Assembly (NCBI GenBank): GCA_910588975.1
Contig: CAJUSE010000004.1
Coordinates: 3,790-35,789, forward strand
DNA from: an uncultured Oscillospiraceae bacterium
GTDB taxonomy: Bacteria; Bacillota; Clostridia; Oscillospirales; Oscillospiraceae
Direction of reading: 5' to 3'
Length of the DNA: 32,000 nucleotides
Shown here: positions 17,752-30,553 of the stretch, in pieces
Numbering within the stretch: position 1 is the first letter of the stretch
How the letters are laid out: every line of letters begins with the position of its first letter
The notes under the pieces: generated by a model
Told to the model about the DNA's origin: nothing
The model's database searches: none
The model's input: the letters and a program-made list of their open reading frames with translations, nothing else
Program-made: the position numbers and the translations under genes

Positions 17752-18924
17752 TTATTCCTGTTCCTTCCAGGAGCGGGCCACCTGGAAGAGCTTGTCCATG
17801 TCCCCCTCGGTGGTGAAGGGGCCGATGGCAATGCGGACGTAGCCGTCCACCCCTTTGCTGATAAAGACCCCATGCTCCAGGAAATAGTCCACCATCTCGG
17901 CGTTGCGCTCCGCCTTCACGGCCATGGAGTGGCAGCGGTGCTTGGGGTCGAAGGGGGTGAGGATGTCATAGCCCAGCAGGGTGAGCTCCTTGTAGACCCG
18001 CTCAAAGCAGTCCGAGATGTGTGCGCCGATCTCCTCCAGCCCAATTTCCAGCAGCTTGCCGATGCCCGCACGCAGGCCGTAAATGGCCTGGAAGGGGATG
18101 GTGCCGCTCTCAAACTTCCGGGCGTCGATGGCGTCGGTCCCCTTGATCTCCCAGGTGTCCCGGTTGATGGACAAGGCGGGGCTGTCCCCGGCGGTGACGG
18201 GGCGTAGCTTGGCGAGAAGGGGGTCGCTGACATAGAGGAAGCCCACGCCCTCTACCCCCAGCAGGCCCTTGTAGCAGGAGCTGGCCACAGCGTCCACCCC
18301 CATGCTCTGCACGTCAAAGGACTGGAAGCCCAGGCCCTGGATGGCATCGGTGATGACACAGGCCCCCCGCTTGTGGCACTGCTCCACCAGATAGGGCAGG
18401 TCGATCTTGTAGCCGCTGCGGGACTGGACATAGCTGACCACCACGATGCGGGTGTGCTCGTCCACCTGCTCCAGCAGCTCCTCGGCGGAAAGAGTCATGC
18501 CGTTGGAGGGGACCACCCGGACCTCCACCCCCTTGTTTTTCAGGTAGAGACAGGGCATGAGGACAGAGACGTGCTCCAGATCGCCCACCACGATGTTCTC
18601 CCCGGGAGCGAAGGGGTAGCCCTGAAGCACGTCGCTAATGGCCTGGCAGGTGTTGGGGGTGAAGGCCAGGTTGTGGATGTCCCCGGCGTGGAGGAACAGC
18701 CGCAGCTGCTCCCGGGCATCGGCGATGACACCGATGGTCTCTCCCTTGCCCGCCCCGCCGGCCTTCACCAGCCCGGGCCGGATGTCGGCCTTGTGGTCCA
18801 TATAGGTATTCAGAGCCTGGCGGACAAAGTCATTGCCGCAGTTTTCGTAGGCGATGTCGAAGAAGGCCAGCTTTTCGGCCACGGGGAACTGGCTGTGAAG
18901 CTCCTTGACCCACTGCTTGTCCAT
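17752..18924 (-). CDS. Aminotransferase class V-fold PLP-dependent enzyme
   Basis: ATG at 18924 follows ggaggag. The product is about 390 aa, with a PLP-lysine region (SCYKGLLG) and DAIQGLG. Confidence 0.75.
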   Translation of the reverse strand: MDKQWVKELHSQFPVAEKLAFFDIAYENCGNDFVRQALNTYMDHKADIRPGLVKAGGAGKGETIGVIADAREQLRLFLHAGDIHNLAFTPNTCQAISDVLQGYPFAPGENIVVGDLEHVSVLMPCLYLKNKGVEVRVVPSNGMTLSAEELLEQVDEHTRIVVVSYVQSRSGYKIDLPYLVEQCHKRGACVITDAIQGLGFQSFDVQSMGVDAVASSCYKGLLGVEGVGFLYVSDPLLAKLRPVTAGDSPALSINRDTWEIKGTDAIDARKFESGTIPFQAIYGLRAGIGKLLEIGLEEIGAHISDCFERVYKELTLLGYDILTPFDPKHRCHSMAVKAERNAEMVDYFLEHGVFISKGVDGYVRIAIGPFTTEGDMDKLFQVARSWKEQE

Positions 18925-18959
18925 GTGATCTCCTCCAGTCAATAAATTTTGGTACTGTC

Positions 18960-18988: not shown

Positions 18989-19061
18989 CGGCTATTTATT
19001 GGGGGTGGGTTCGGTGCCGCAGTTTGCGAAAGGGAAAAAGGGGGCTTTTTTGCAAAGTGAC

Positions 19062-19090
19062 TTGATTTTTAGACCTGATGCCTCTATAAT
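19062..19090 (+). promoter_or_regulatory. Candidate promoter for the tatB-like/tatA/tatC operon
   Basis: TTGATT (19062-19067), a 17-nt spacer, then TATAAT (19085-19090). Confidence 0.6.
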
Positions 19091-19177
19091 GGTCTTTGTG
19101 AATTTTGAGGCCCTCTTTGTGCTGCCGGCCCGGTGGGCTGACAGAGCACAGGGAGACAGAGAGGAGCGTGAGAACCC

Positions 19178-19582
19178 GTGAGGATCGGCGCAACAGAACT
19201 TTTGGTGGTGTTTGTGGTGGCCCTTCTGGTCATCGGGCCGGATAAGCTGCCCGCTTTTGCCAAGAAGCTGGGAGAGGCCATGGGTCAGTTCAAGCGCTAT
19301 TCGGACAAGGTGGCCAAGGAGATCCAGGAAACCGTGGTAGAGCCCATGGAGGAGGTCGCCGAACCTATCCGCAAGGCCGTAGAACCCATCGAGGAGATGG
19401 ACAAGACCATCCGCAGCAGCGTGCGGGAGGTGGAGAAGTCCTTCTCGGATATTGGAAAGCCCGCAAAAAAGACCGCCTCTCCGGCCCGGGAGACTGCCGA
19501 GGCTTCGGAGGGCGAAGAAAAACCAGAAGTCACAGACAGCGAAAGCGCTGTGAAAAAGGAAGAGGAGGAGCAACAACAATGA
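19178..19582 (+). CDS. Twin-arginine translocase TatA/E/B family protein, long TatB-like form (copy 1)
   Basis: GTG start. The N-terminus reads MRIGATELLVVFVVALLVIGPDKLPAFAKKLG (TM segment, hinge, amphipathic helix) and is followed by a long acidic tail. Confidence 0.85.
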   Translation: MRIGATELLVVFVVALLVIGPDKLPAFAKKLGEAMGQFKRYSDKVAKEIQETVVEPMEEVAEPIRKAVEPIEEMDKTIRSSVREVEKSFSDIGKPAKKTASPARETAEASEGEEKPEVTDSESAVKKEEEEQQQ

Positions 19583-19764
19583 GATTGGGTACACTTGAAA
19601 TTCTGGCTATTCTGGGCATCGTCCTGCTGGTGTTCGGTCCCACCCAGCTGCCCAAGCTGACCAAGATGTTCGGCAAGAGCGTCAAGAGCTTTAAGGAGGG
19701 CGTGGAGGAGGACAAGTCCACCGCCGACAAGGGGACTGAGGATGGCGACAAAAAGGAAGACTGA
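19579..19764 (+). CDS. tatA: Twin-arginine translocase subunit TatA (copy 1)
   Basis: The product starts MRLGTLEILAILGIVLLVFGPTQLPKLTKMFGKSVKSFKEG. An ATGA overlap links it to the upstream gene. Confidence 0.9.
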   Translation: MRLGTLEILAILGIVLLVFGPTQLPKLTKMFGKSVKSFKEGVEEDKSTADKGTEDGDKKED

Positions 19765-20584
19765 GGCGACTGCCCAGGAAAAGCGGATGAAGCTGACAGG
19801 CCACCTGAAGGAGCTGCGCTCCCGGCTGGTGGTCTGCCTGCTGGTGCTTTTCGTGACCATTATCGTGGGCATCGGCCTGGCTCCCAAGCTGGTGGAGCAC
19901 CTGCTGAACATGGGCAAGGTCTACGGCTATCAGTATGTCTATCTGTCCCCCCAGGAGCTGCTGATGCAATACATGTCGGCGGCACTGGTTTTTGGCATCG
20001 TGGCCACCATGCCCCTGATTCTCTATCAGGTCTGGGCCTTTGCCAAGCCGGGGCTGACCAAGCGGGAGAACCGGGTGTTTTTGTGTGCCCTCATCTTTGG
20101 GACCATCTGCTTCTGCGTGGGTGTCTACTTCGCCTATCAGGTCATGCTGCCCACCATGCTGCTGTTTCTCAGCACGCTGGAAAACAGCGCTGAGGTGGCC
20201 GCCGCCATCTCGGTACAGAATTACATCTCCTTCCTGTTGACCATCTTCATCATCTTCGGCAGCGTGTTTGAGCTGCCCGTGCTGTCGGTGGTGCTGGATG
20301 CCGTGGGTATCCTGAAGGTGAAATGGATGAAGCAGGCCCGACGGTATGTCATTGTGGTCAGTTTCATCGTATCCGCCTTCATCACCCCTCCTGATGTGGT
20401 CAGCCAGGTCATGGTGGCCATCCCTGTTATGGGACTGTATGAGCTGAGCATCATCCTGTGCTCCATCGTGGAAAAGCTGCGGCGGAAAAAGCCCGAGGAG
20501 GATGACGAGGAGAGGGAGGCTTCCGAAAAGGGAGAAGCGTCCCCCGAGAAGGAAGAAGCGTCCCCTGAAAAGAACGAGGAGTAA
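19742..20584 (+). CDS. tatC: Twin-arginine translocase subunit TatC
   Basis: The product has 6 TM segments and TatC motifs (HLKELRSRL, PLILYQVWAFAKPGL, SAFITPPDVVSQ). An alternative start at 19787 is possible. The acidic C-terminal tail contains an EASPEK repeat. Confidence 0.9.
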   Translation: MATKRKTEATAQEKRMKLTGHLKELRSRLVVCLLVLFVTIIVGIGLAPKLVEHLLNMGKVYGYQYVYLSPQELLMQYMSAALVFGIVATMPLILYQVWAFAKPGLTKRENRVFLCALIFGTICFCVGVYFAYQVMLPTMLLFLSTLENSAEVAAAISVQNYISFLLTIFIIFGSVFELPVLSVVLDAVGILKVKWMKQARRYVIVVSFIVSAFITPPDVVSQVMVAIPVMGLYELSIILCSIVEKLRRKKPEEDDEEREASEKGEASPEKEEASPEKNEE

Positions 20585-20588
20585 GTCC

Positions 20589-20620
20589 GCCGCCCCGCTG
20601 GTACCAGCGGGGCGGCTTTT
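20589..20620 (+). terminator. Rho-independent terminator after tatC
   Basis: gccgccccgctgg-tac-ccagcggggcggc followed by tttt. Confidence 0.85.
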
Positions 20621-20635
20621 CGTGCGTTTGGGTCC

Positions 20636-20664
20636 TTTTCATCCGGCGGGCGGTGTGGTAGAAT
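20636..20664 (+). promoter_or_regulatory. Candidate promoter with extended -10 for the NTPase gene
   Basis: TTTTCA, a 17-nt spacer, then TAGAAT, with TGg immediately upstream of the -10. Confidence 0.4.
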
Positions 20665-20693
20665 GGGGGAAAAAACAGAAGGGGGGAGCGGGC

Positions 20694-21221
20694 ATGAAAA
20701 ACAACCTGTTTTTGACCGGAGACCGAAGGGTGGGCAAGAGCACCTGCATCGACCGGGCACTGGAGCAGGTGCGGGGTGAGGTGAGGGGCTTTCGCACTTA
20801 CTTTGCCGACGAGACCAGAGCGCAACTGCTGCTTTCTGACCCGGCGGGGCGACAGACCCAGGTAGCGGCCCGGCGGCGGGCAGAGGGGGGCTTTCAGGTT
20901 TTTGAGGAGGCCTTTGAGGGCTGCGGCGTGGAGCTGCTCCACTCCGGTTGGGAGGCAGATCTGATGCTTATGGATGAGCTGGGCAAGCTGGAGACTGGCT
21001 GCCCCCGGTTCCGCTCTGCCGTGCTGGAGACGCTGGAGCGCCCCGTCCCCGTGCTGGGGGTGCTGCGCCAAGGGGAGGGGGAGTGGCTGGATCTGCTCCA
21101 CCGCCACTCGGCCATAGAGGTGCTCACCGTAACAGAGGACAACCGGGAATGGGTCGGGGAGCAGCTGTCCCGCTGGCTGAGGGAGCTGGGGCTTGTGCCG
21201 GAGATTTGCCCCGGAGTGTAA
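20694..21221 (+). CDS. P-loop nucleoside-triphosphatase (THEP1/NTPase_1-like)
   Basis: ATG at 20694 follows gaaggggggag. Walker A is LTGDRRVGKST and Walker B is LMLMDELG. The product is 175 aa. Confidence 0.65.
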   Translation: MKNNLFLTGDRRVGKSTCIDRALEQVRGEVRGFRTYFADETRAQLLLSDPAGRQTQVAARRRAEGGFQVFEEAFEGCGVELLHSGWEADLMLMDELGKLETGCPRFRSAVLETLERPVPVLGVLRQGEGEWLDLLHRHSAIEVLTVTEDNREWVGEQLSRWLRELGLVPEICPGV

Positions 21222-21326
21222 GCCCGCCTGGCCTTGACGCAGGATTGCCTGAAAGGACTGGCCTCCAGCGCTTTGGCGCAGGTGGGAGATCGGGTCGAAA
21301 ACCCGCAAAAATATCTTGTTAATCTA

Positions 21327-21355
21327 TTGACATTTTCGGCCGAATGGAATAGAAT
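21327..21355 (+). promoter_or_regulatory. Strong candidate promoter for the tat2-AOR operon
   Basis: TTGACA (21327-21332), a 17-nt spacer, then TAGAAT (21350-21355). Confidence 0.65.
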
Positions 21356-21365
21356 ACATATGAAA

Positions 21366-21470
21366 ATTGAATAGTCTCCGAGTAGGGTCGGCCTAAGGAT
21401 AAGCATCTATGGCCGTCCTGCCAGGGCCAGGCCGGAAACGGCATGACCTTCCGTTGTGAAAAGGGGCTTC
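21366..21470 (+). promoter_or_regulatory. Structured 5' leader, candidate Moco/W-co (RF01055-like) riboswitch aptamer, copy R1
   Basis: It shares two conserved blocks with the leader at 27405-27520. These are tgaataNNCTCCGAG (21368-21382) and CCTTCCGTTNTGAAAAGGGGC (21447-21467), with similar spacing (64 vs 68 nt). It contains an internal GNRA hairpin gccg-gaaa-cggc (21431-21442). The class assignment rests on my recollection of the consensus, not on a covariance-model search. Confidence 0.5.
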
Positions 21471-21570
21471 ACACCCGCCGGGCATGACATTTGCGTGCCT
21501 TGGCCCGTTACTTCGTGTGGGACAGCTCTTTTTCAAGGAGAAAGTGCGCCCCATGGAGACAGGGGAAGCT

Positions 21571-21607
21571 GTGGGTGTTTTGGGAAACCGGGACACCTGT
21601 TTTTTTA
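21571..21607 (+). terminator. Weak candidate intrinsic terminator within the tat2 leader
   Basis: gggtgt-(14-nt loop)-acacct followed by g and seven T residues. The stem is short and includes a G-U pair. Confidence 0.3.
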
Positions 21608-21726
21608 CCCATTTTTTCGACAAATTTCGAGGGATTTCCCCGGGAGCGGGGGTCCACAAGACTATTTTGACCTCCTGGCACATAGATTGCCATGAACGGA
21701 TCAGAGGGAGAAAGAGGAGGAGACCC

Positions 21727-22179
21727 ATGAGGATCGGAGCAGTGGAACTGTTGGTGATATTTGCTGTGGCCCTTCTGGTCATCGGACCGGACAAGCTGCC
21801 CGCCTTCGCCAGAAAGCTGGGGGAGGTGCTGGGGCAGTTCAAGGGCTACTCGGATAAGGTGGCCAAGGAGATCCGGGAGACGGTGGTAGAGCCCATGGAG
21901 GAAGTGACCCAGCCCATTCGGGAGGCCATGAAGCCCATCGAGGAAGTGGACAAGACCATCCGCAGCAGTGTGCGGGATGTGGAGAAGTCCTTCTCCGGCA
22001 TCGGCAAGCCCACGAAGAAGCCGGTGTCCCAGCCCGCCGCTCCGGCGGAGGCGGAACAGGCACCCCCTGCGGAGGAGGCCCCCGCACCCCGGCCGGCAGA
22101 TCCGGAGGAAGAAGAGATATTAAGAGAGCTTAAGGAAATTCAGGTCGAGGAAGACCGTATGAAGGAGGAAGAAAAATGA
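21727..22179 (+). CDS. TatA/E/B family protein, long TatB-like form (copy 2)
   Basis: ATG at 21727 follows aaagaggaggag. Over the first 98 aa, 81 positions are identical to copy 1 (hand count). Confidence 0.85.
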   Translation: MRIGAVELLVIFAVALLVIGPDKLPAFARKLGEVLGQFKGYSDKVAKEIRETVVEPMEEVTQPIREAMKPIEEVDKTIRSSVRDVEKSFSGIGKPTKKPVSQPAAPAEAEQAPPAEEAPAPRPADPEEEEILRELKEIQVEEDRMKEEEK

Positions 22180-22358
22180 GATTGGGAACATTGGAGCTCC
22201 TGGCCATCCTGGCCATCGTGCTGGTGGTCTTCGGCCCGTCCCAGCTGCCCAAGCTGACTAAGATGTTTGGCAAGAGCGTGAAAAATTTCAGGGAGGCAGT
22301 GGACGAGACCGACAAGGAGGACACTGCCGACGAGAAGGGCGAGGACGACAAGTCCTGA
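22176..22358 (+). CDS. tatA: Twin-arginine translocase subunit TatA (copy 2)
   Basis: ATGA overlap with the upstream gene. Over the first 44 aa, 36 positions are identical to TatA copy 1 (hand count). Confidence 0.9.
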   Translation: MRLGTLELLAILAIVLVVFGPSQLPKLTKMFGKSVKNFREAVDETDKEDTADEKGEDDKS

Positions 22359-22450
22359 ATGTGGTTTAAGCCGCTTGTCAAAGCGCTTAAATAAAGAGAA
22401 AGCACAGGATGAAACGGCCTGTGCGAAATGAAAAGAGGAGGTCATCAATT

Positions 22451-23077
22451 ATGGCGAAAGAGAACTTTGCGAGCGCAGACATGACACGCCGCCAATTCCT
22501 GAAGATCTCGGGAAAGTCACTGGTAGGTCTGACCCTGTCTGCCTCATTCCTCTCCCTGGTGGGTTGTACCCAGGACCAGGTGGATGACGGCGATGTCATG
22601 GTCTGGGCTCTGCCCCAGGGCCTGCTTGTGGTCAACCAGGATAAGTGCACCGGCTGCCAGCGCTGCGAGATCAACTGCACCCTGGTCAACGACGGCGCTG
22701 TGTCCAGCTACATGTCCCGTGTGAAGGTGACCCGGAACCTGTTCTCCAGCAGAAACGGCTCCGGACTGTATACCGACGACCACTGGACCTACTTCCCCGA
22801 CACCTGCCGGCAGTGCGCCGACCCCGCCTGCGCTAAGGCCTGCCCCAAGGGCGCCATCTATGCCGACGAGAACGGCGTGAAGAAGGTGGACGAGGAGAAG
22901 TGTATCGGCTGCGGCGCTTGTACCGAGGCTTGCCCCTGGCACATGCCCACCGTGAACCCCATCACCAAGAAGTCGTCCAAGTGCATCCAGTGCGGCGCTT
23001 GCGTGGCCGGCTGCCCCTCGGGCGCTCTGTCCATCATCCCCTGGGAAGAGGTCGCTGCGGCCGCCCAGGCAGTCTAA
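22451..23077 (+). CDS. Tat-signal, lipobox-bearing 4x[4Fe-4S] ferredoxin-like subunit (DmsB/YdhX-like)
   Basis: ATG at 22451 follows gaggagg. The Tat motif TRRQFLK lies at 22484-22504 and the lipobox LVGC has its Cys codon at 22565-22567. Four cluster motifs are visible: CTGCQRCEINC, CRQCADPACAKACP, CIGCGACTEACP and CIQCGACVAGCP. Confidence 0.85.
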   Translation: MAKENFASADMTRRQFLKISGKSLVGLTLSASFLSLVGCTQDQVDDGDVMVWALPQGLLVVNQDKCTGCQRCEINCTLVNDGAVSSYMSRVKVTRNLFSSRNGSGLYTDDHWTYFPDTCRQCADPACAKACPKGAIYADENGVKKVDEEKCIGCGACTEACPWHMPTVNPITKKSSKCIQCGACVAGCPSGALSIIPWEEVAAAAQAV

Positions 23078-23094
23078 TATAGGGAGGTATAGAT

Positions 23095-25257
23095 ATGTCT
23101 GCACAGAACGGTATCAACGGCTGGGCCGGTACGATCCTGCGGGTCAACCTGACCACCGGCTCCATCACCCGGGAGGACACCCTCCCCAAGTATAAGCCCT
23201 TTGTGGGCGGCATGGGCATCGGCTACAAGATCATCTGGGACGAGGTCCCCATGGAGACCGAGCCCTTCAGCGAGGAGGCCAAGGTGGTCTTTAGCGTCGG
23301 CCCCCTGACCGGCTCCGGCGTGCCCTGCTCCGGCCGGACCACCATCACCCTGCTGTCCAACTGGTCCAAGGGCAAGTCCATCCTGGACGCCCACATGGGC
23401 GGCCATCTGGCCCACGGCATCAAGTATGCCGGCTATGATGCCATTGTCATCGAGGGCAAGGCCGACAAGCCTGTCTACGTGAAGATCGACGACGACAAGG
23501 TCACCATCGAGGATGCCTCCCACGTCTGGGGCAAGGGCACCTTCGAGACCAATAAGATCCTGGCCGGCGAGGCCGGCCCTGAGTTCGACGTGGCCTCCAT
23601 CGGCCCCGCCGGCGAGCACCTGCTGGGCTACTCCACCATCAACACCGCCTTCGGTAACTCTGGCGGCGCCGGTGTTGGCGGCGCCTTGGGTGCCAAGAAC
23701 ATGAAGGCTATTGTGGTCCGGGGCACCGGCGCTGTGAAGATCGCCGATCCCGTGGAGCACAAGAACCTGTGCGACTATATGATCCGGGACCTGGTTGGCG
23801 GCAACAACAACCACAACGTCCCCTCCCGTCCCCAGTCCTGGGCCGAGTACACCTCCACGGTGAAGAACCGTTGGCAGGGCGGCCCCGGCGTGGTGTGGGG
23901 CGCCGCTCCCTCCGGCCCCATCGACACCGGCGAGCAGCCCTCCGGCGACATCCAGGTGGCTGCTTACCGTGCCGTGAAGGGCGTGTTCGATTACGGTGAC
24001 ATCGTCCAGAAGTACATCGTCAAGTCCGGCGGCTGCGCCTCCTGCCCGGTCCGCTGCTACTCCGAGTACGAGGTGGACGTGCTGGCTGATTACGACCTGC
24101 CCACCAAGGTGTCCAACACCTGCGTGCCCTCCGGCAGCGTGCCCACCGCTTTCTACGCCAAGGGCTGCATGCATGACTTCAAGGAGGAGGGCGACTCCAA
24201 GATCGTCATCGGCCTCCACGGTGCTTACGTCATGGACGATCTGGGTCTGTGGGAGGACTACGCCAACCTGGGCCGTGATTTCGCCTGGTGCCTGGAGAAC
24301 GGTGTCTTTGAGAAGAAGCTGCCCAAGGAGGAGTACGACTCCATTCCCTGGCAGCTGATGAAGGACGGCGATCCCCGCTGGCTGGACGAGATCATGGGCC
24401 GCATCGCCCGCAAGGAGGGCGAGATCAGCATCATCGGCGAGGGCAGCTACTTCTTCTACAAGGCCTGGGGCCTGGATGATGCCGCCAAGAACGAGTGGGG
24501 CGTCAACATGTACGATAAGATCGGCGGCAACAACAACGTCACCTACAACGGCTTCCCCAAGCATCACTCCAGCGAGGATGGCTGGCAGTCCGGCCTGCTC
24601 TACAACGTGATGTATAACCGGGACTGTATGGTCCACGTGCTGACCAACTTCGTCCGTTCCGGCTCTCCCTTCGAGGAGGTCATTAAGCCGGTGCTGGAGA
24701 GCTACTTCGGCGAGGGCTGTGTGGACGCTCCCAAGGCCTACACCCCCATCAACGAGAACAAGGTCAAGCTGGCCAAGTGGTGCTTCCTGGAGAAGCAGTG
24801 GGCGGACTCCGCCACCCTGTGCGACTGGATGTACCCCATGACCCTGTCCACCTCTCCCGCCCGGAAGTACGTGGGCGACATCGAGCTGGACGCTAAGTAC
24901 ATGACCGCCGTCACCGGCGAGAACTGGACCATGGACGACATCTTCGAGGCCATGGAGCGCATCAGCGCCATGCTGCGGGCTATGACCGCCATCTCCTTCA
25001 AGATCCACGAGGGCGAGACCAACCTGCGCACCAGCCACGACCGGGTGCCCGATTGGGTGTTCGACAAGGATCCAGACTTCAAGGCCTTTGAGAAGGGCAC
25101 CGACAAGATGGATCGGGATGACTGGGAGAAGTCCCTGACCATGTTCTACGAGGCCATGGGTTACAGCACCGAGACCGGCATCCCCACCCGGGAGACCCTG
25201 GAGCGGCTGGATCTGGCCGATGTGGCCGACAGGCTGGAGGAGTACGAGCTCATCTAA
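23095..25257 (+). CDS. Aldehyde:ferredoxin oxidoreductase (AOR) family tungsto/molybdopterin enzyme, YdhV-like, with no signal peptide
   Basis: The AOR_N pattern is visible (GWAGTILRVNLTTGSI...VGGMGIGYKII...GPLTGSGVPCSGR...IGPAGEHL...GAKNMKAIVVRGTG). A CxxCxxxC [4Fe-4S] motif (CASCPVRC) lies at 24034-24057. The product is 720 aa. Confidence 0.85.
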   Translation: MSAQNGINGWAGTILRVNLTTGSITREDTLPKYKPFVGGMGIGYKIIWDEVPMETEPFSEEAKVVFSVGPLTGSGVPCSGRTTITLLSNWSKGKSILDAHMGGHLAHGIKYAGYDAIVIEGKADKPVYVKIDDDKVTIEDASHVWGKGTFETNKILAGEAGPEFDVASIGPAGEHLLGYSTINTAFGNSGGAGVGGALGAKNMKAIVVRGTGAVKIADPVEHKNLCDYMIRDLVGGNNNHNVPSRPQSWAEYTSTVKNRWQGGPGVVWGAAPSGPIDTGEQPSGDIQVAAYRAVKGVFDYGDIVQKYIVKSGGCASCPVRCYSEYEVDVLADYDLPTKVSNTCVPSGSVPTAFYAKGCMHDFKEEGDSKIVIGLHGAYVMDDLGLWEDYANLGRDFAWCLENGVFEKKLPKEEYDSIPWQLMKDGDPRWLDEIMGRIARKEGEISIIGEGSYFFYKAWGLDDAAKNEWGVNMYDKIGGNNNVTYNGFPKHHSSEDGWQSGLLYNVMYNRDCMVHVLTNFVRSGSPFEEVIKPVLESYFGEGCVDAPKAYTPINENKVKLAKWCFLEKQWADSATLCDWMYPMTLSTSPARKYVGDIELDAKYMTAVTGENWTMDDIFEAMERISAMLRAMTAISFKIHEGETNLRTSHDRVPDWVFDKDPDFKAFEKGTDKMDRDDWEKSLTMFYEAMGYSTETGIPTRETLERLDLADVADRLEEYELI

Positions 25258-25274
25258 GCAAAAGGAGAATTTTC

Positions 25275-25943
25275 ATGGCGTTTTTTGGAAGAAGAAAGCC
25301 GGGGTTTTCCAAGGAGGAGACCGTGGATCCCCGGACCCTTTCAGACGTCGTGGTTGAGGAGTATGGGAACAAATCTGGCACCACCGCCGATGAGGCGGTG
25401 GTGCCGGCTCCTGTTCAGGAGGAAGGACCCCTGCCGGCCAATATGGCCCAGGCCCTGGCCCAATTCGTTCGCAACCACAGCGCTGCCGGGATGCTGGTCT
25501 CGCTGAACCAGCTGACCGAAGAGGATCCCACCATCCCCACCCTGTTTGAGCAGATGCGGGCTGATCCCGCCTGCGGCGACATCGCCCTGCGCAAGACGGC
25601 GAAGGATACCTATCTCTATCAGGAGGGCTCCATGAGCGAGCTCTACCTGATGCTCAACACGCTGGTGCTGGATGACGATGCCAAGAATACCATTGTCACT
25701 CTGGTGCGCTACAACAGCAAGACCTACCCCTCTGTGACTCCCTATGACTACTTCACCCGCCCCCCCTTCTCCATGCCCATGGAGCGCATTGAGACGGCAA
25801 TTCAGGACATTTTGGACAGCGGTGAACCGGCGGATATCGCCAGGGTGGTCTCATCGGAGGGGAATTCCTACCTCTATTCCACGGACCATATCACGCCGGA
25901 GTATGCCAAGGGTCTGGCCGAGTTCGTGGAAGACAACGACTGA
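25275..25943 (+). CDS. Hypothetical acidic protein, paralog A (possibly YdhW-like, judged from operon position and size)
   Basis: The 222-aa product has no TM segment or signal peptide. Its C-terminal 150 aa or so align with the next ORF (CGDI/CQDI, YLY/YFY, TLV, VRYNSKTYP/VRFHAEKYP, TPYDYF/TPFTYF, EYAKGLAEF/KYGKALADF). Confidence 0.5.
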   Translation: MAFFGRRKPGFSKEETVDPRTLSDVVVEEYGNKSGTTADEAVVPAPVQEEGPLPANMAQALAQFVRNHSAAGMLVSLNQLTEEDPTIPTLFEQMRADPACGDIALRKTAKDTYLYQEGSMSELYLMLNTLVLDDDAKNTIVTLVRYNSKTYPSVTPYDYFTRPPFSMPMERIETAIQDILDSGEPADIARVVSSEGNSYLYSTDHITPEYAKGLAEFVEDND

Positions 25944-25958
25944 GAAGGAGGGTCCCCC

Positions 25959-26633
25959 ATGGCGCCTGAGGAGAAGATCAACAATCCCTTTTTTGAGGGC
26001 GAGAAGATCCCGGATGTGGAAGGGCGGCCGGATCTGCTGGAGTATCTGGAGTCCCTGCCCGAGGTGGAGGACACCATGCCCCCCATTCCAGAGAAGGAGC
26101 CTGAGCCCGAGCCGGAGTTCACCCCGGAGGAGGAGCTTGCCAACGTGATCCGGCGAGCCTCCGGCCGGAGCCGGCTGGTGAAAAAAAGCCAGATCCTGCA
26201 GGAGATCACCAGGGGTGAGGAGCTTTTGGGCCTTATGCTGGCCAGTGAGAGCTGCCAGGATATCCGCAGCAAAAGCGGCAAGGCTGAGATCTATTTTTAC
26301 TCCTCCCAGCACATGACGGACAACTATGCCATGATTGCCACCCTGGTGGAGGAGGCGGACGGCCCGGCCACCATTGCGCAGATGGTCCGCTTCCACGCTG
26401 AGAAGTATCCCGCCGCCACCCCCTTTACCTATTTTTTCGGCACGCCCTATAACTGGACGAGGGAGCAGTTCATGCTGGCCCTGGAACAGCTGCGGAAAAT
26501 TCCGGATTACGAGGACATCGTGGAGGTCCACGCCTACGATGATACCCCCTTCCTGATCTCCACCAAGTTTGTGACGGAGAAATACGGCAAGGCGCTGGCC
26601 GACTTCGGGCAGGAGAGCACGGAGAGCATGTAA
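25959..26633 (+). CDS. Hypothetical acidic protein, paralog B (possibly YdhW-like)
   Basis: The 224-aa product has a Pro/Glu-rich N-terminus (EKEPEPEPEFTPEEE). Its C-terminal domain is paralogous to 25275-25943. Confidence 0.5.
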   Translation: MAPEEKINNPFFEGEKIPDVEGRPDLLEYLESLPEVEDTMPPIPEKEPEPEPEFTPEEELANVIRRASGRSRLVKKSQILQEITRGEELLGLMLASESCQDIRSKSGKAEIYFYSSQHMTDNYAMIATLVEEADGPATIAQMVRFHAEKYPAATPFTYFFGTPYNWTREQFMLALEQLRKIPDYEDIVEVHAYDDTPFLISTKFVTEKYGKALADFGQESTESM

Positions 26634-26655
26634 AAACTACAGCAAGGAGAAACCC

Positions 26656-27360
26656 ATGGACGAACAGACGGCCCTGCCCATTCAGACCGTGACCGGGCTC
26701 CAGACCACGGCGGAGGGGGAGACCCTCCCTGTGGAGATGGCACTGCCTGTGGAGCACAAAATCGACATTTACGTGGACGGTGAGCTTTACCGCCCGGTGG
26801 TCTGCACCCCCACCATGCTGCCGCAGCTGGTGCTGGGGCGGCTGATTACCGACGGCGTGATCTGGGGCATAGAGGAGGTGGCCCAATGGGCCATCTCCCC
26901 GGCGGGGGACAGAGCCGACGTGGCGCTATCCCACAAGCCCCGGCCGGAAAGGGAGAGGCGGGATGCCCCTGCTGTTACGGACGGTATGATCCGCACAGCC
27001 CAGGCCAAGCTGGCCGAGGGAAATCCCCTTTACAAAGCTACCCGGGGGGTCCACTGCTGTATCCTGATCCACGGGGGCGAGCTCCGCTATGTCACCGAGG
27101 ATCTGTCCCGCCACAGCGCCCTGGACAAGGCGGTGGGAAGTGCCCTTTTGGCCGGGGTGGAGCTGGGGGAGTGTGTGCTTTTCTCCAGTGGCCGGGTGCC
27201 GACGGATATGCTCCAAAAGAGCATCAACGCCGGGATCCGGGCTCTGATCGCCAAGGCCATTCCCACCTATCAAAGTGTAGAGCTGGCCCGAAAGCAGGGC
27301 ATCACCCTCATCTGTGACGCCCGGGGGGGCAAGTACGCCCAGTTTTCCCCTTTGACTTGA
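26656..27360 (+). CDS. fdhD: FdhD-family protein (formate dehydrogenase accessory sulfurtransferase-like)
   Basis: RBS: aaggaga. FdhD-like blocks are visible (IDIYVDGELYRPVVCTPTMLPQLVLGRLITDGVI, EDLSRHSALDKAVG, SSGRVPTDMLQKSINAGIRALIAKAIPT). The product is short (234 aa) and contains no CxxC motif. Confidence 0.7.
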   Translation: MDEQTALPIQTVTGLQTTAEGETLPVEMALPVEHKIDIYVDGELYRPVVCTPTMLPQLVLGRLITDGVIWGIEEVAQWAISPAGDRADVALSHKPRPERERRDAPAVTDGMIRTAQAKLAEGNPLYKATRGVHCCILIHGGELRYVTEDLSRHSALDKAVGSALLAGVELGECVLFSSGRVPTDMLQKSINAGIRALIAKAIPTYQSVELARKQGITLICDARGGKYAQFSPLT

Positions 27361-27386
27361 CAAAGAGACTCCCGCTGTGGTATCCT
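27357..27386 (+). promoter_or_regulatory. Candidate promoter for the ABC importer operon
   Basis: TTGACA (27357-27362, overlapping the fdhD stop), an 18-nt spacer, then TATCCT (27381-27386), with TGg just upstream as an extended -10. Confidence 0.5.
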
Positions 27387-27404
27387 CAGTGGGAACACAA
27401 GAAC

Positions 27405-27520
27405 TGAATATGCTCCGAGCCGGCTGTACCTACGGGAGGGAACTCCTACGGTCCCCCGGCCACTGGGTCACATGGAAAACCATATGGCCTTCCGTTTTGA
27501 AAAGGGGCAGCTTGCATATC
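27405..27520 (+). promoter_or_regulatory. Structured 5' leader, candidate Moco/W-co riboswitch aptamer, copy R2
   Basis: It has the same blocks as R1: tgaatatgCTCCGAG (27405-27419) and CCTTCCGTTTTGAAAAGGGGC (27488-27508). A closing helix atatgc (27408-27413) pairs with gcatat (27514-27519). Internal hairpins are ggag-ggaa-ctcc (27435-27446) and ggcca...atgg-aaaa-ccat...tggcc (27458-27489). Confidence 0.5.
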
Positions 27521-27563
27521 GGGGACGCCCCTTTGGAGCGCCCCGGAATGGGTTGTACGCTCT

Positions 27564-27597
27564 GGACTCCTTTTCTTCGGAAAAGGAGTCCTTTTTT
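27564..27597 (+). terminator. Strong intrinsic terminator forming the expression platform of leader R2
   Basis: ggactcctttt-cttcgg-aaaaggagtcc followed by tttttt, about 50 nt upstream of the permease ATG. Confidence 0.8.
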
Positions 27598-27648
27598 GCT
27601 TATTTTGAGCCCTTCTGTCAGGCAGGGGGCGGGGAAAGGAGAGGGAAC

Positions 27649-28662
27649 ATGGAGGAAAAGCGAGCAAACCGCACCCTGTTGGCTCTGGGGCTTGCCCTGG
27701 CGGCTCTGGTGGCCCTGTCCTTCACCCTGGGCCGGTATGGTTTGGGGCTGGGAGAGCTGTGGCGTGTGCTCACCGGCACCCCCCTGGGCCTGCCGGCCAG
27801 CCAGATGACCCCCCAGCAAACAGTTGTGTGGAACATCCGCCTGCCCCGCATCCTGCTGTGCTGCCTGGTGGGGGCTTGCCTTGCCTCGGCAGGGGCCTGC
27901 TATCAGGGGGTGTTCCAGAATGCCATGGCCTCTCCCGACCTGCTGGGCTGCTCCCAGGGGGCTGCCTTTGGGGCGGCTCTGGCCATCCTGCTGGGGGCCG
28001 GCACCGCCGGGATCACCGCCTCGGCCTTCCTGTTCAGCCTGGTGACAGTGGCCCTTGTCTACCTCATTGGCCAGTATGCCCCTGGGCAGAAGGTGCTCAA
28101 TTTGGTGCTGGGGGGCGTGATGATCGGCTCCCTCTTCTCGGCGGGGACCTCCTTTATCAAGCTGGTGGCCGACCCGGGAGACCAGCTGCCCGCCATCACT
28201 TACTGGCTCATGGGCTCTCTGGCCGGGGCCAGGATGGAGACCGTACTGCTGGCTCTGGTGCCCATGCTGTTGGGCCTTGTGCCCCTGTTCCTGCTGCGCT
28301 GGAAGATCAACCTGCTGGTGATGGGGGAGGAGGAGGCCCGGGCCATGGGGGTGCATACCGACCGGCTGCGGCTGGTGGTGGTGCTGTGCGCCACCCTCAT
28401 TACGGCATCGGCGGTGTCAGTGAGCGGCCTCATTGGCTGGGTGGGGCTGGTGGTGCCCCACCTGTCCCGGATGCTGGTGGGCAGCAATTACAAGCACCTG
28501 CTGCCCTGCTCGGCCCTCTTTGGGGCGGGGTTCCTGCTCCTCACCGACAACGTCAGCCGAAATCTCTTTACCGCCGAGCTGCCCATCGGCATCCTGACGG
28601 CCTGGATCGGCGCTCCCTTTTTCATCTATCTCATGCTGCATCAGGGGAGGGGAGAGACATGA
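27649..28662 (+). CDS. FecCD/BtuC-family ABC transporter permease
   Basis: ATG at 27649 follows aaaggagaggg. The product has typical FecCD blocks (IRLPRILLCCLVGACLASAGACYQGVFQN, GIPMGILTA-like LPIGILTAWIGAPFFIYL). Confidence 0.85.
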   Translation: MEEKRANRTLLALGLALAALVALSFTLGRYGLGLGELWRVLTGTPLGLPASQMTPQQTVVWNIRLPRILLCCLVGACLASAGACYQGVFQNAMASPDLLGCSQGAAFGAALAILLGAGTAGITASAFLFSLVTVALVYLIGQYAPGQKVLNLVLGGVMIGSLFSAGTSFIKLVADPGDQLPAITYWLMGSLAGARMETVLLALVPMLLGLVPLFLLRWKINLLVMGEEEARAMGVHTDRLRLVVVLCATLITASAVSVSGLIGWVGLVVPHLSRMLVGSNYKHLLPCSALFGAGFLLLTDNVSRNLFTAELPIGILTAWIGAPFFIYLMLHQGRGET

Positions 28663-29456
28663 TAGAGGTCAAAGACCTGTGCTTTTCCTACCGCAGCCGG
28701 GAGGTACTCAAGGGGGTCTCCTTCCAGGCAAGGGAGGGTACGGTCAGCTTCGTGCTGGGGGCCAACGGAGCGGGCAAGACCACCCTGTTCCGCTGCCTGC
28801 TGGGCCTCTACAGGCCCAGCGCCGGGGCCGTGCTGCTGGATGGAGAGGACCTGACCAGGCTGCCGCCCCCCCAGCTGGCCAAACGGCTGGCCTATATTCC
28901 CCAGAGCCATGCCCCCGTTTTTGATTTCACCGTGCTGGACATGGTGCTCATGGGCACCAACCACGACCTTGGGACCTTTCGGTCCCCGGGGGCGGAGGAG
29001 CGCCGCCGGGCCATGTCCGCTCTGGAGCGGGTAGGGGCCCAGGAGCTGACCCACCGGGTGTTCCGCCGGCTCAGCGGGGGGGAGCAGCAGCTGGTCCTCA
29101 TTGCCCGGGCCCTGGCCCAGGGCTCCCGGGTGCTGGTTATGGACGAACCCACTGCCAATCTGGATTACGGCAATCAGCTTCTGGTGCTGGAGTGCGTCTG
29201 CCGGCTGGCAGAGGAGGGCTACACCGTCCTTATCTCCTCCCACGACCCCCAGCACGCCCTGTGGTATGCCCACCGGGTGCTGGCGCTGGACGGGGGCGTG
29301 GTGGTGGCCGACGGTCCCGCCGGGGAGGTGCTGGACGGCCCGCTGCTCCAACAGCTCTATGGCGTGGAGGCAGAGTTTGCGCAGGCGAGCTGCGGCCGGG
29401 TCATTGTCCCCAGGCAAATCAAAACGCACAAGGTGTATAAGGAGGAAATGGAATGA
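28659..29456 (+). CDS. ABC transporter ATP-binding protein (FepC/BtuD-like)
   Basis: ATGA overlap with the permease gene. Walker A is GANGAGKTT, the ABC signature is LSGGEQQ and Walker B is VLVMDEP. Confidence 0.9.
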   Translation: MIEVKDLCFSYRSREVLKGVSFQAREGTVSFVLGANGAGKTTLFRCLLGLYRPSAGAVLLDGEDLTRLPPPQLAKRLAYIPQSHAPVFDFTVLDMVLMGTNHDLGTFRSPGAEERRRAMSALERVGAQELTHRVFRRLSGGEQQLVLIARALAQGSRVLVMDEPTANLDYGNQLLVLECVCRLAEEGYTVLISSHDPQHALWYAHRVLALDGGVVVADGPAGEVLDGPLLQQLYGVEAEFAQASCGRVIVPRQIKTHKVYKEEME

Positions 29457-30553
29457 AAAGAACGGTCTCTATGCTTCTGGCCCTGACCTTGGGCCTCACC
29501 CTGGTGGGCTGCAGCGGCCAGAGGGGGGAGAAAAACCCGGATCCCGAGGTCAGCACCCCTGTTGAGGAGAGCCAGACCACCGAGCCCCGGAGCTTTACCG
29601 ACTCCCTGGGCCGGACGGTGGAGCTGCCCGCCCAGATCGACCACATCGCCGTCAGCGCCGCCATGGCCCAGCGGGTGGTGGCCCCCCTGGCCGCTGATAA
29701 GATGATCGGGCGCTCCGGGGAGTTCACCGAGGCGGAAAGGGAGTATTACACCGACGCCTATGCCGAGCTACCCGTGGTGGGCGAGTTCTACGGCAAGGAG
29801 ACCGGGGATCTGGAGGTGCTGCTCTCCTCCGGCGCCCAGGTGGTCATCGACGTAGGTACGCCTAAGGACGGTCTGGCCGAGGACCTGGACGCCCTCACCC
29901 GGCAGACGGGCATCCCCTTCGTCCACATTTCCTTCTACGCCGATGCCATGGATGAGGTATATATCAAGCTGGGCGAGCTGCTGAACATGCCCGATGAAGC
30001 CGAGAAGCTGGCGGCCTACTGCCGGGAGACCTATGATATGGTCCAGGCCATCGCCGACAAGGCCGAGAAGGCCAACATCCTCTATGTGGTGGGGGATAAG
30101 GGGCTCAATGTCATCGCCAGGGGCAGCTACCACGCCGGGGTCATCGACATGCTGACCAACAACCTGGCCGTGGTGGATAACCCCGTCTCCAAGGGCTTTG
30201 GCAACGAGGTGGACATGGAGCAGATCCTGCTCTGGGACCCGGATATCATCTTCTTCTCTCCTGAGAGCATCTATGATACCGTGGCCGATGATCCCCTCTA
30301 TCAGCAGGTCACCGCCATCAGGAACGGGGCCTACTATAAGGTCCCCCTTGGCCCGGACAACTGGATGGGCTTTCCCCCTTCGGTCCAGCAGCTGCTGGGT
30401 ATGCAGTGGATGGCCAAGGTCCTCTATCCCGACCTGGCCGACTACGACCTCTACGAGCGGGTAAATGAGTTCTACACCCTGTTCTACCATAAGCCCCTGT
30501 CCCAGGAGGAATTCGATAAGCTGGTCGCCGGCTCTCTGAGCCCGAAAGCCTGA
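29453..30553 (+). CDS. ABC transporter substrate-binding lipoprotein (Peripla_BP_2 / cluster A, BtuF/FhuD-like)
   Basis: ATGA overlap with the ATPase gene. The Sec/SPII signal with lipobox reads MKRTVSMLLALTLGLTLVGC. The 366-aa product sits downstream of the FecCD permease and ATPase genes. Confidence 0.8.
   Translation: MKRTVSMLLALTLGLTLVGCSGQRGEKNPDPEVSTPVEESQTTEPRSFTDSLGRTVELPAQIDHIAVSAAMAQRVVAPLAADKMIGRSGEFTEAEREYYTDAYAELPVVGEFYGKETGDLEVLLSSGAQVVIDVGTPKDGLAEDLDALTRQTGIPFVHISFYADAMDEVYIKLGELLNMPDEAEKLAAYCRETYDMVQAIADKAEKANILYVVGDKGLNVIARGSYHAGVIDMLTNNLAVVDNPVSKGFGNEVDMEQILLWDPDIIFFSPESIYDTVADDPLYQQVTAIRNGAYYKVPLGPDNWMGFPPSVQQLLGMQWMAKVLYPDLADYDLYERVNEFYTLFYHKPLSQEEFDKLVAGSLSPKA

Follow-up and report, generated by a model that had tools for sequence, protein, structure and literature searches.

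The genes treated here lie in a stretch of 32,000 nucleotides (the window) from an uncultured Oscillospiraceae bacterium (assembly GCA_910588975.1, contig CAJUSE010000004.1, positions 3,790 to 35,789) and form a candidate operon, at window positions 21327-27360, for a pterin oxidoreductase of the AOR/WOR family. The closest described system is the Class V WOR (clade 41), a class described in 2026 in which the large subunit WorL is YdhV, the small subunit WorS is YdhY bearing a signal for twin-arginine translocation (Tat), and one or more further subunits accompany them [PMC13328260]. Class V makes up more than 10% of the AOR/WOR family and is common in gut bacteria; none of its members has been given a reaction or a role in physiology [PMC13328260]. 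Its Cetobacterium somerae representative, CsWOR41LSW (Front Microbiol 2026), has tatAE/tatC, fdhD, moeA, and tupABC as neighbours; when only L and S were expressed, L alone was recovered, and no activity was seen on 46 aldehydes [PMC13328260]. The paper makes no mention of riboswitches or lipoproteins [PMC13328260]. The window shares with CsWOR41LSW a YdhV-clade L, a Tat-signal poly-ferredoxin S, and a YdhW-type third gene, with tatA/E, tatC, and fdhD nearby, and the class is found in gut Clostridia. However, the window has its tat genes within a predicted riboswitch unit and in a second copy, its ydhW gene duplicated with the N-terminal motifs partitioned, and a WorS with a lipobox; its FdhD-like protein lacks the Cys loop, whereas the Cetobacterium FdhD is called a predicted sulfurtransferase [PMC13328260]. 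A further difference is that the window lacks a flavin-binding membrane subunit.

The E. coli ydhYVWXUT operon, whose expression is under protein regulators such as FNR, has YdhY, YdhV, and YdhW in the same order as their orthologs in the window (49%, 47%, and 33% identity, respectively), and the metal-ligand Cys and a lipobox-like LLGC/LVGC are common to both. However, E. coli YdhY has R-L where WorS of the window has R-R, and E. coli YdhV prefers molybdenum (Mo). E. coli also has YdhX, YdhU (a PhsC-like cytochrome b), and YdhT, none of which has a homolog in the window or among 83 clostridial loci: tblastn with YdhU and YdhT gives nothing there at E <= 1e-3, and a YdhX query matches the worS gene only, with no second YdhX-like ferredoxin. 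In the phoD-tatAd-tatCd system of Bacillus subtilis, a substrate gene is co-regulated with its own Tat components. Like the window, this is a monoderm system with Tat genes beside, and co-expressed with, an exported client (in the window, by prediction). However, the operon in the window contains only TatA/B-family genes and shares its tatC, and its client is a cofactor-containing heterodimer with a proposed hitchhiking export and predicted riboswitch control, whereas the phoD system belongs to the Pho regulon.

Two further relatives bear on chemistry and regulation. The BamB clade, the sister of YdhV in the AOR family, shares with it an extra Cys metal ligand, and neither clade has the second-shell residues that typify aldehyde oxidoreductases [PMC12096430]. 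BamB works in the cytoplasm as part of BamBCDEFGHI; the enzyme of the window, by contrast, carries export signals. The leader of the operon belongs to Rfam family RF01055 (Regulski et al. 2008), the aptamers of the molybdenum/tungsten cofactor (Moco/Tuco) class; it passes the gathering score and falls in the tungsten-linked subclass that lacks a P3 stem. The moaA example of this family is an OFF switch that acts on translation, whereas the leader in the window is predicted to be ON through competition between the P1 stem and a terminator, and to control a cofactor-using enzyme together with export genes. Terminator-type Moco platforms in Clostridia have already been noted (Regulski et al. 2008) [PMC2408646].

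The operon was delimited with an open reading frame (ORF) scan and Pfam, NCBIfam, and Rfam models. Identities were scored with Pfam, the NCBIfam equivalog cut-offs, and the Rfam gathering score, candidate terminators were located by a terminator scan, and promoters by consensus match. An earlier note on this DNA had described seven ORFs on one strand, and all of them are present at, or very near, the positions it gave. A promoter and a P3-less aptamer are followed on the + strand by tatB-like2, tatA2, worS, worL, ydhW1, ydhW2, and the FdhD-like gene, closely packed with gaps of -4, 92, 17, 17, 15, and 22 nucleotides (nt). The first two genes overlap by ATGA, and the terminator scan finds none within the seven-gene block. 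The features are:

21327-21355, + strand: sigma-70-type promoter TTGACA-17-TAGAAT (11/12 match, the best site in 19000-28000)
21364-21482, + strand: Moco/Tuco-class riboswitch aptamer without a P3 stem (Rfam RF01055)
21463-21533, + strand: T1, a long hairpin followed by U5, with the P1 3' strand (GGGGCU) as its 5' arm (RNAfold, -25 kcal/mol)
21571-21607, + strand: T2, a second terminator-like hairpin followed by U7 (terminator scan)
21727-22179, + strand: tatB-like2, a long TatA/B-family protein of 150 amino acids (aa) (PF02416, E 1e-11)
22176-22358, + strand: tatA2, a short TatA/E-family protein of 60 aa (PF02416, E 6e-14; best model TIGR01411, tatAE)
22451-23077, + strand: worS, a YdhY-type 4x[4Fe-4S] protein with twin-arginine signal TRRQFLK and lipobox LVGC (NF007382)
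23095-25257, + strand: worL, a YdhV-clade AOR/WOR protein of 720 aa with no signal peptide (AFOR_N, AFOR_C, NF007354)
25275-25943, + strand: ydhW1, of the YdhW family, which keeps an N-terminal MxFFGRRKPGF (NF007411, E 5e-30)
25959-26633, + strand: ydhW2, a YdhW-family paralog that keeps PDLLEYLESLPEVED (NF007411, E 2e-30)
26656-27360, + strand: FdhD-like protein without the catalytic Cys loop (PF02634, E 1e-42)

We consider it fairly probable that the genes here form an operon for maturing and exporting a pterin oxidoreductase of Class V (YdhV-clade, "WOR41"). The operon would work as follows. Transcription from the strong promoter would run into the P3-less Moco/Tuco aptamer. Bound cofactor, probably its tungsten form, would hold P1 closed, which would block the terminator and allow transcription to continue (ON); apo-enzyme would then be made only when cofactor is available. 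The second TatB-like/TatA pair would act with the product of the single upstream tatC. WorL, which would contain a Cys-ligated tungsten (W) or Mo bis-pyranopterin and one [4Fe-4S] cluster and has no signal peptide, would be loaded with cofactor in the cytoplasm, probably helped by the FdhD-like protein as a binding or insertion factor, and the two acidic, cytoplasmic YdhW proteins would probably help as tandem winged-helix adaptors. WorL would then bind WorS, the folded pair would be exported "piggy-back" through Tat, and WorLS would stay on the outer face of the membrane via the lipid-modified Cys of WorS. A second leader downstream (leader B) would be wired in the opposite sense (OFF), such that high cofactor shuts metal uptake while the enzyme that consumes the cofactor is switched on. 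What the analysis shows is which genes and which aptamer are present, the signal motifs, and that the core of genes and the layout of the leader are conserved; the roles given here to YdhW, the FdhD-like protein, and the extra TatBA pair are ones that we infer.

The control element lies at the start of the transcript. The promoter, which lies 9 nt upstream of the aptamer, bears out the strong promoter of the earlier note (promoter-like sites in the 9-kb region number 8 vs 1.9 expected), and its structured leader, for which it suggested cofactor-sensing RNA control, proves to be an RF01055 aptamer. The match scores 54.4 bits where the gathering score is 36 (E 1.4e-10), and its alignment has the P3 positions deleted. 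Our own covariance model, built from Rfam-confirmed aptamers, scores the same segment at 73 bits. Among 48 related aptamers, 88% of cells are paired vs 38-50% with the partners slid, and 13 of 19 pairs show compensatory changes, figures that lean in favour of the model because the 48-sequence alignment was fitted to it. With this model, a P3-less short aptamer is found 75-200 nt upstream of worS in 45 loci, and two more are cut by contig ends. A loose regular expression for Moco aptamers was discarded in favour of the covariance model since many of its matches were false, including four in the window, and the candidate at L077 13244-13381 was left out of the model because it aligned poorly.

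The aptamer and the first terminator share a strand. T1 was recognised only by comparing the leader of the window with those of other loci, in which the hairpin that ends at a U-run starts exactly at the P1 3' strand, GGAG. In the window the T1 stem, 21463-21529, ends at the U-run 21529-21533 (RNAfold). The same overlap, with the 5' arm of the terminator being the P1 3' strand, is present in 32 of the 45 leaders upstream of worS, the window included, and several of the remaining 13 differ only by an imperfect U-run. Because P1 and the terminator base exclude each other, a P1 held by ligand should prevent termination, and the worS leader is predicted from folding to be a cofactor-ON switch. The pbuE adenine riboswitch is a known ON switch with this P1-versus-terminator geometry. 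The other hairpin, T2, sits 38 nt past the riboswitch terminator and 120 nt before tatB2. T2 was rejected as a switch terminator coupled to the aptamer, since it forms in all conditions tested and so does not explain switching; a homology search with the 3' part of the leader (T2 included) and with the tatA2-worS spacer gave no matches.

The product of worL carries the AOR-family domains that the earlier note had assigned to it. PF02730 (AFOR_N) matches residues 12-211 with E 2e-63, PF01314 (AFOR_C) matches with E 7e-34, and the YdhV-type equivalog NF007354 is passed narrowly, at 869.5 bits against a cut-off of 868. WorL is 47% identical to E. coli YdhV over 713 aa (BLASTP), and a search of PDB sequences finds no YdhV-clade structure for it, the nearest being FOR, AOR, and BamB, mainly over the N-terminal domain. 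WorL Cys343 aligns with Cys336 of E. coli YdhV, a protein ligand to the metal that occurs only in the YdhV and BamB clades [PMC12096430]. The [4Fe-4S] cysteines of the pattern CxxCxxxC...C (C314, C317, and C321, plus C511) are kept as well, and C314, C317, C321, C343, and C511 are invariant in 14 clostridial homologs. By gene content, the module in the window belongs to Class V WOR (clade 41, the YdhV clade): it has an AOR-domain large subunit, a Tat-signal small subunit, and further genes, the two ydhW copies after worL. Since AFOR_N begins at residue 12, there is no room for a signal peptide, and without one WorL could be exported only together with WorS. A hitchhiker mode is well known for Tat substrates, and by analogy WorL would leave the cytoplasm in this way, on WorS.

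WorS matches the YdhY-type ferredoxin-like model NF007382 with 254 bits (cut-off 213). Its ORF is open from 22409 (22409-23077), and a Shine-Dalgarno sequence and the homologous N-termini favour the start at 22451. The motif TRRQFLKISGKSLVGLTLSASFLSLVGC precedes four Cys clusters of the CxxCxxCxxxC type, which can be read in the translation, and the gene ends 17 nt upstream of worL; the close spacing of the two genes given in the earlier note thus stands, although its count was 18 nt. That note had also likened the module to YdhV with the Tat-signal ferredoxin YdhX. The YdhV part of this comparison holds; the ferredoxin, however, shares 49% identity with E. coli YdhY, in a match that takes in the N-terminal signal region, and 29% with YdhX, and by this measure WorS is the ortholog of YdhY, which is treated as WorS in the literature [PMC13328260], and not of YdhX. 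The twin-arginine signal claimed for this subunit is well conserved, TRRQFLK being kept in 73 of 75 WorS homologs. The LVGC of the window, 22-25 residues past the first Arg of the RR, fits the signal peptidase II (SPII) lipobox pattern [LVI][ASTVI][GAS]C, and 19 of 73 homologs, among them the window, its nearest relatives, and Tissierellia and Lachnospiraceae loci, have a lipobox Cys after the hydrophobic region. A lipid anchor on WorS can be predicted from this motif. The N-terminus of E. coli YdhY, LTRLEFLRISGKGLAGLTIAPALLSLLGCKQ (L007 9852-10478), is homologous to the clostridial Tat/lipobox signal, with R-L for R-R and the LLGC retained. Given the LLGC in E. coli YdhY and the patchy Cys in Clostridia, the lipobox is an ancient trait, kept only here and there, rather than a substitute for YdhU, contrary to the suggestion that a lipobox anchor had taken the place of the membrane subunit.

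How much of the operon is conserved was assessed with a scan of one genome per species, which yielded 80 loci, every one in a Clostridia-type organism. Closest among them are Vermiculatibacterium agrestimuris (84%) and a Pseudoflavonifractor metagenome-assembled genome (85%), both Oscillospiraceae. Neighbours were counted by tblastn with the window proteins at the 40 loci that have at least 5 kb on both sides of worL. WorS-WorL-YdhW is present in every locus with enough flank and is the only universal part. Within 5 kb of worL, tatC is found in 25/40 loci (22 divergent, 3 co-directional), TatA/B in 26, an FdhD-like gene in 16, and a THEP1-like NTPase in 8. Thus, when the seven genes are checked for co-conservation, as the earlier note proposed, the core passes and the seven-gene arrangement does not. 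All-against-all clustering of neighbour ORFs from 82 loci gives only proteins of cofactor biosynthesis and transport, namely MobB-, MoeA-, MoaA-, and ModA/TupA-like ones (labels assigned by reading representative sequences, not by model search), along with Tat, FdhD-like, THEP1-like NTPase, and LysR proteins.

The Tat genes at the head of the operon have a parent set upstream:

19178-19582, + strand: tatB1 (PF02416)
19579-19764, + strand: tatA1 (tatA/E-family NCBIfam models)
19742-20584, + strand: tatC (PF00902)
20589-20616, + strand: terminator after tatC

As the earlier claim of ATGA-coupled TatA/B paralogs implies, PF02416 matches both small proteins of the operon, and PF00902 identifies a TatC in the window. 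The best model for tatB-like2 is TIGR01410 (tatB), at 49 bits, below its cut-off of 56.5, which makes the TatB label only suggestive. At the nucleotide level tatB2 is an 82% copy of 19174-19473 and tatA2 an 80% copy of 19566-19710. For tatB2, the synonymous divergence (dS) from copy 1 is 0.89 and the ratio of nonsynonymous to synonymous divergence (dN/dS) is 0.26; for tatA2, dN/dS is 0.19. Since the window has only this one tatC, the products of tatB2A2 must work with tatC 19742-20584. A pair of tatBA genes 3' of the riboswitch, between aptamer and worS, occurs only in this window among the 83 loci, and where tatABC is co-directional in other loci the aptamer comes after tatC; riboswitch control of tatBA would thus be specific to this lineage.

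This lineage-specific position raises the possibility that tatB2-tatA2 is a redundant local duplicate, moved between leader and worS by rearrangement, which adds Tat dosage without a dedicated function, the "private Tat" then being an accident of the lineage. The possibility is a serious one, though we lean somewhat away from it. Besides the arrangement being confined to the window, it would fit the single, divergent tatBAC of the closest relatives, the lack of a second tatC, and the DNA identity of 80-82% between the copies, which starts 4 nt before the start codon. However, judged by their substitution rates (dS ~0.9; dN/dS 0.19-0.26), both are old and under purifying selection, long kept in the genome. 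The C-terminal tail of TatB2 has also been remodelled relative to copy 1, and the linkage of tat to worSL in 25/40 loci suggests that the enzyme is a major Tat client. Set against the ortholog in L005, the copies are about as distant from each other as from it, a result that does not date the duplication.

A second question is which metal the enzyme holds and the aptamers sense. Both aptamers of the window have the P3 model positions deleted, whereas L059, L066, and others have P3. Aptamers without P3 go along with tungsten-cofactor metabolism [PMC2408646]; on this basis W rather than Mo is the metal we infer for WorL. It is conceivable, if rather doubtful, that the enzyme instead uses Mo-bis-molybdopterin (Mo-bis-MPT), as E. 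coli YdhV does, and that the aptamers sense Moco rather than Tuco. The Mo preference of E. coli YdhV, the presence of ModABC in all 37 Class V genera with TupABC encoded in only 15 [PMC13328260], and the lack of tupABC in the window would agree with this, and, according to Regulski et al., deletion of P3 alone does not switch specificity [PMC2408646]. Against Mo stands the P3-less form of both window aptamers, the class that follows tungsten cofactor use. P3-containing Moco aptamers (103-130 bits, own model) lie directly downstream of ydhW, heading the next genes, in L066 (12892-13028), L069, L070, L074, L078, L080, L081, L083, and L086; these loci are Tissierellia and Lachnospiraceae-type and have no aptamer upstream of their worS.

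The two paralogs after worL, set down in the earlier note as unknown acidic proteins, can instead be placed in the YdhW family: NF007411 matches both (E ~1e-30, ~105 bits, which is below its cut-off of 203), PF27264 (YdhW_C) is precomputed on the database protein P0121, which is identical to YdhW1, and the paralogs have 33% identity with E. coli YdhW and 30% between themselves. Two copies are found only in the closest relatives and a few others. Single-copy clostridial YdhW proteins have two N-terminal motifs, MxLFGRRKPGF and PDLLxYLxSLPxVED, ahead of winged-helix domains. In alignment A4, YdhW1 keeps only the first motif and YdhW2 only the second (regions 25275-25330 and 25990-26040), a split that suggests subfunctionalisation after the duplication of ydhW. 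An AlphaFold model of YdhW1, made from a 54-sequence alignment, is confident and has a predicted local distance difference test score (pLDDT) of ~96 over residues 50-222, which form two helix-helix-helix-hairpin repeats, that is, tandem winged helices; the N-terminal 45 residues are disordered. In the PDB, Foldseek returns only generic tandem winged-helix proteins (RPC34/62, the SelB C-terminus, ESCRT-II, ScpB, and MukE). With an isoelectric point (pI) of ~4.4, a protein-binding adaptor is likelier than a nucleic-acid binder, and the modelled fold would suit such an adaptor.

The constancy of ydhW, the sole gene besides worS and worL that is always present, might mean that YdhW1 and YdhW2 are structural subunits exported with WorLS rather than cytoplasmic assembly factors, and the 2026 paper does name the Cetobacterium enzyme CsWOR41LSW [PMC13328260]. 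We think this unlikely: the same paper is unsure of the subunit status and left the protein out of the expression construct [PMC13328260], and the YdhW proteins carry no signal, begin with a long stretch that is acidic and disordered, and have winged-helix domains of a generic adaptor type, features that fit the cytoplasmic adaptors of the proposed operon. The first YdhW motif contains a twin arginine without a hydrophobic segment after it. One may speculate that the GRRKPGF peptide engages the Tat receptor as part of proofreading. Two apparent YdhW-ferredoxin "fusions," P0174 and P0186, are really E. coli ydhW-ydhX read-throughs across the intergenic region and were set aside as artefacts or pseudo-fusions.

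The last gene of the operon bears out the FdhD-like label given to it before. PF02634 scores 146.8 bits vs 27.2, with a good match to the FdhD C-terminal domain, and the equivalog TIGR00129 scores 126.9, below its cut-off of 140.9. In E. coli FdhD, Cys121 and Cys124 of the GCGVCG loop carry persulfide. A MAFFT alignment shows this loop to be missing from the window protein; in 18 WOR-linked homologs from related loci it is either missing or carries Ser substitutions. Because the Cys loop is missing, the protein is filed as FdhD-like and not as a sulfurtransferase, and we treat it as a probable cofactor-binding or insertion factor; it would bind or insert the cofactor rather than transfer sulfur.

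Just past this gene lies a second unit with its own aptamer:

27401-27523, + strand: leader B, a second P3-less Moco/Tuco aptamer (RF01055, 61 bits against the gathering score of 36)
27564-27591, + strand: strong terminator of leader B
27649-28662, + strand: permease of a type II (BtuCD/FecCD-type) ABC importer (NCBIfam BtuC-like model)
28659-29456, + strand: ATPase of the importer (heme-ATPase-like model)
29453-30553, + strand: lipoprotein binding protein of the importer (Peripla_BP_2 model)

In leader B the aptamer's 3' segment can form an antiterminator by pairing with the terminator's 5' arm (-13 kcal/mol). Ligand binding would dissolve this antiterminator, and leader B is thus predicted from folding to be an OFF-type switch. 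PDB sequence matches of the binding protein include HI_1472 (3psa/3psh), the molybdate/tungstate-binding protein MolA, at E 2e-9. The downstream operon may be a MolBCA-like tungstate/molybdate importer.

Several observations weigh against the proposed mechanism. The ON direction of the worS leader is predicted from thermodynamic folding alone, and the only experimentally tested Moco riboswitch, that of E. coli moaA, is an OFF switch [PMC2408646]. T2 is predicted to form in every folding condition, irrespective of the aptamer, which leaves read-through into tatB2 uncertain. In the three closest relatives (84-86% WorL identity) the aptamer is missing and a LysR-type gene stands in its place, which makes RNA control dispensable. 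The preference of E. coli YdhV for Mo and the TupABC count (15/37 Class V genera) [PMC13328260] speak against tungsten. Lipid anchoring is no family feature, as 54 of 73 WorS homologs are without the lipobox Cys; the Foldseek matches of YdhW are weak (best E 2.6e-3) and indicate a fold class, not a function; and a membrane or quinone-linked partner gene is neither found in the window nor recurrent in the clustering of 82 loci. The LysR-type regulator occupies the site of the riboswitch and tatB2A2 in L005 (3533-4441), L008, and L033. Evidently, an RNA switch at this operon has been swapped for a protein regulator, or the reverse.

A conventional OFF switch as in moaA, by which the operon would be on when free cofactor is scarce and off when the pool is full (feedback on the consumer), would fit the repression by the sole genetically tested Moco aptamer [PMC2408646], the OFF-type look of the adjacent leader B, and the constant T2, but it is quite unlikely, since in 32 of the 45 worS leaders the P1 3' strand itself serves as the terminator's 5' arm and the stem stops at a U-run, and no intermediate antiterminator was found for the leader of this operon. 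The predicted ON switch can be taken a step further. The clostridial P3-less worS aptamers might be the first ON members of the Moco/Tuco class, here also licensing a dedicated TatB/TatA pair, so that export capacity, apo-enzyme, YdhW escorts, and a Cys-less FdhD carrier would be made only with tungsten cofactor present, while an oppositely wired aptamer of the same class shuts the metal importer; in this extended form the idea is improbable.

In outline, the earlier note is largely right: its genes and RNA are confirmed and its interpretation is in part supported. However, the enzyme module belongs to a class already named, and several of the differences it claimed are known or mistaken; the monoderm host, the neighbouring tat genes, and the added fdhD, which it presented as differences, had already been described for Class V WOR [PMC13328260]. 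Distinctive here are a second, selected tatBA pair placed inside the riboswitch unit, which is lineage-specific; the predicted ON wiring, common to dozens of clostridial worS leaders, beside a predicted OFF-wired importer; and the split YdhW motifs, the FdhD-like protein without a Cys loop, and the absence of a membrane electron partner from the window and the loci.

The minimal clostridial module, WorS-WorL-YdhW without YdhX, YdhU, or YdhT, narrows the functional requirements and prompts one to ask how an enzyme that faces outward in a monoderm gains or gives up its electrons. The Cys ligand common to YdhV and BamB argues for looking at reductive, non-aldehyde chemistry. One aptamer class apparently acts as ON for the enzyme and OFF for an importer and could be used as a reporter of intracellular tungsten cofactor. 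For reconstitution, it should be kept in mind that the linked FdhD-like protein cannot be a classical sulfurtransferase, that YdhW is probably an adaptor whose two N-terminal motifs are separable, and that the enzyme may need co-expressed Tat and YdhW partners.

The surroundings contain further genes. Between the tatC terminator and the operon promoter lies one more:

20694-21221, + strand: THEP1-like NTPase (PF03266, E 5e-23)

Homologs of this protein are found beside worSL-ydhW in 14 loci, on either strand. A gene of the cysteine-desulfurase family (class V aminotransferase), at 17752-18942 on the - strand, is divergent from tatB1. IscS co-purified with recombinant CsWOR41L, which the authors dismissed as coincidence [PMC13328260]. 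The rest of the window holds unrelated housekeeping genes. On the - strand, 30621-31982 encodes a protein that combines S-layer homology (SLH) domains with a transglutaminase-like core, as would suit a cell envelope bearing an S-layer.

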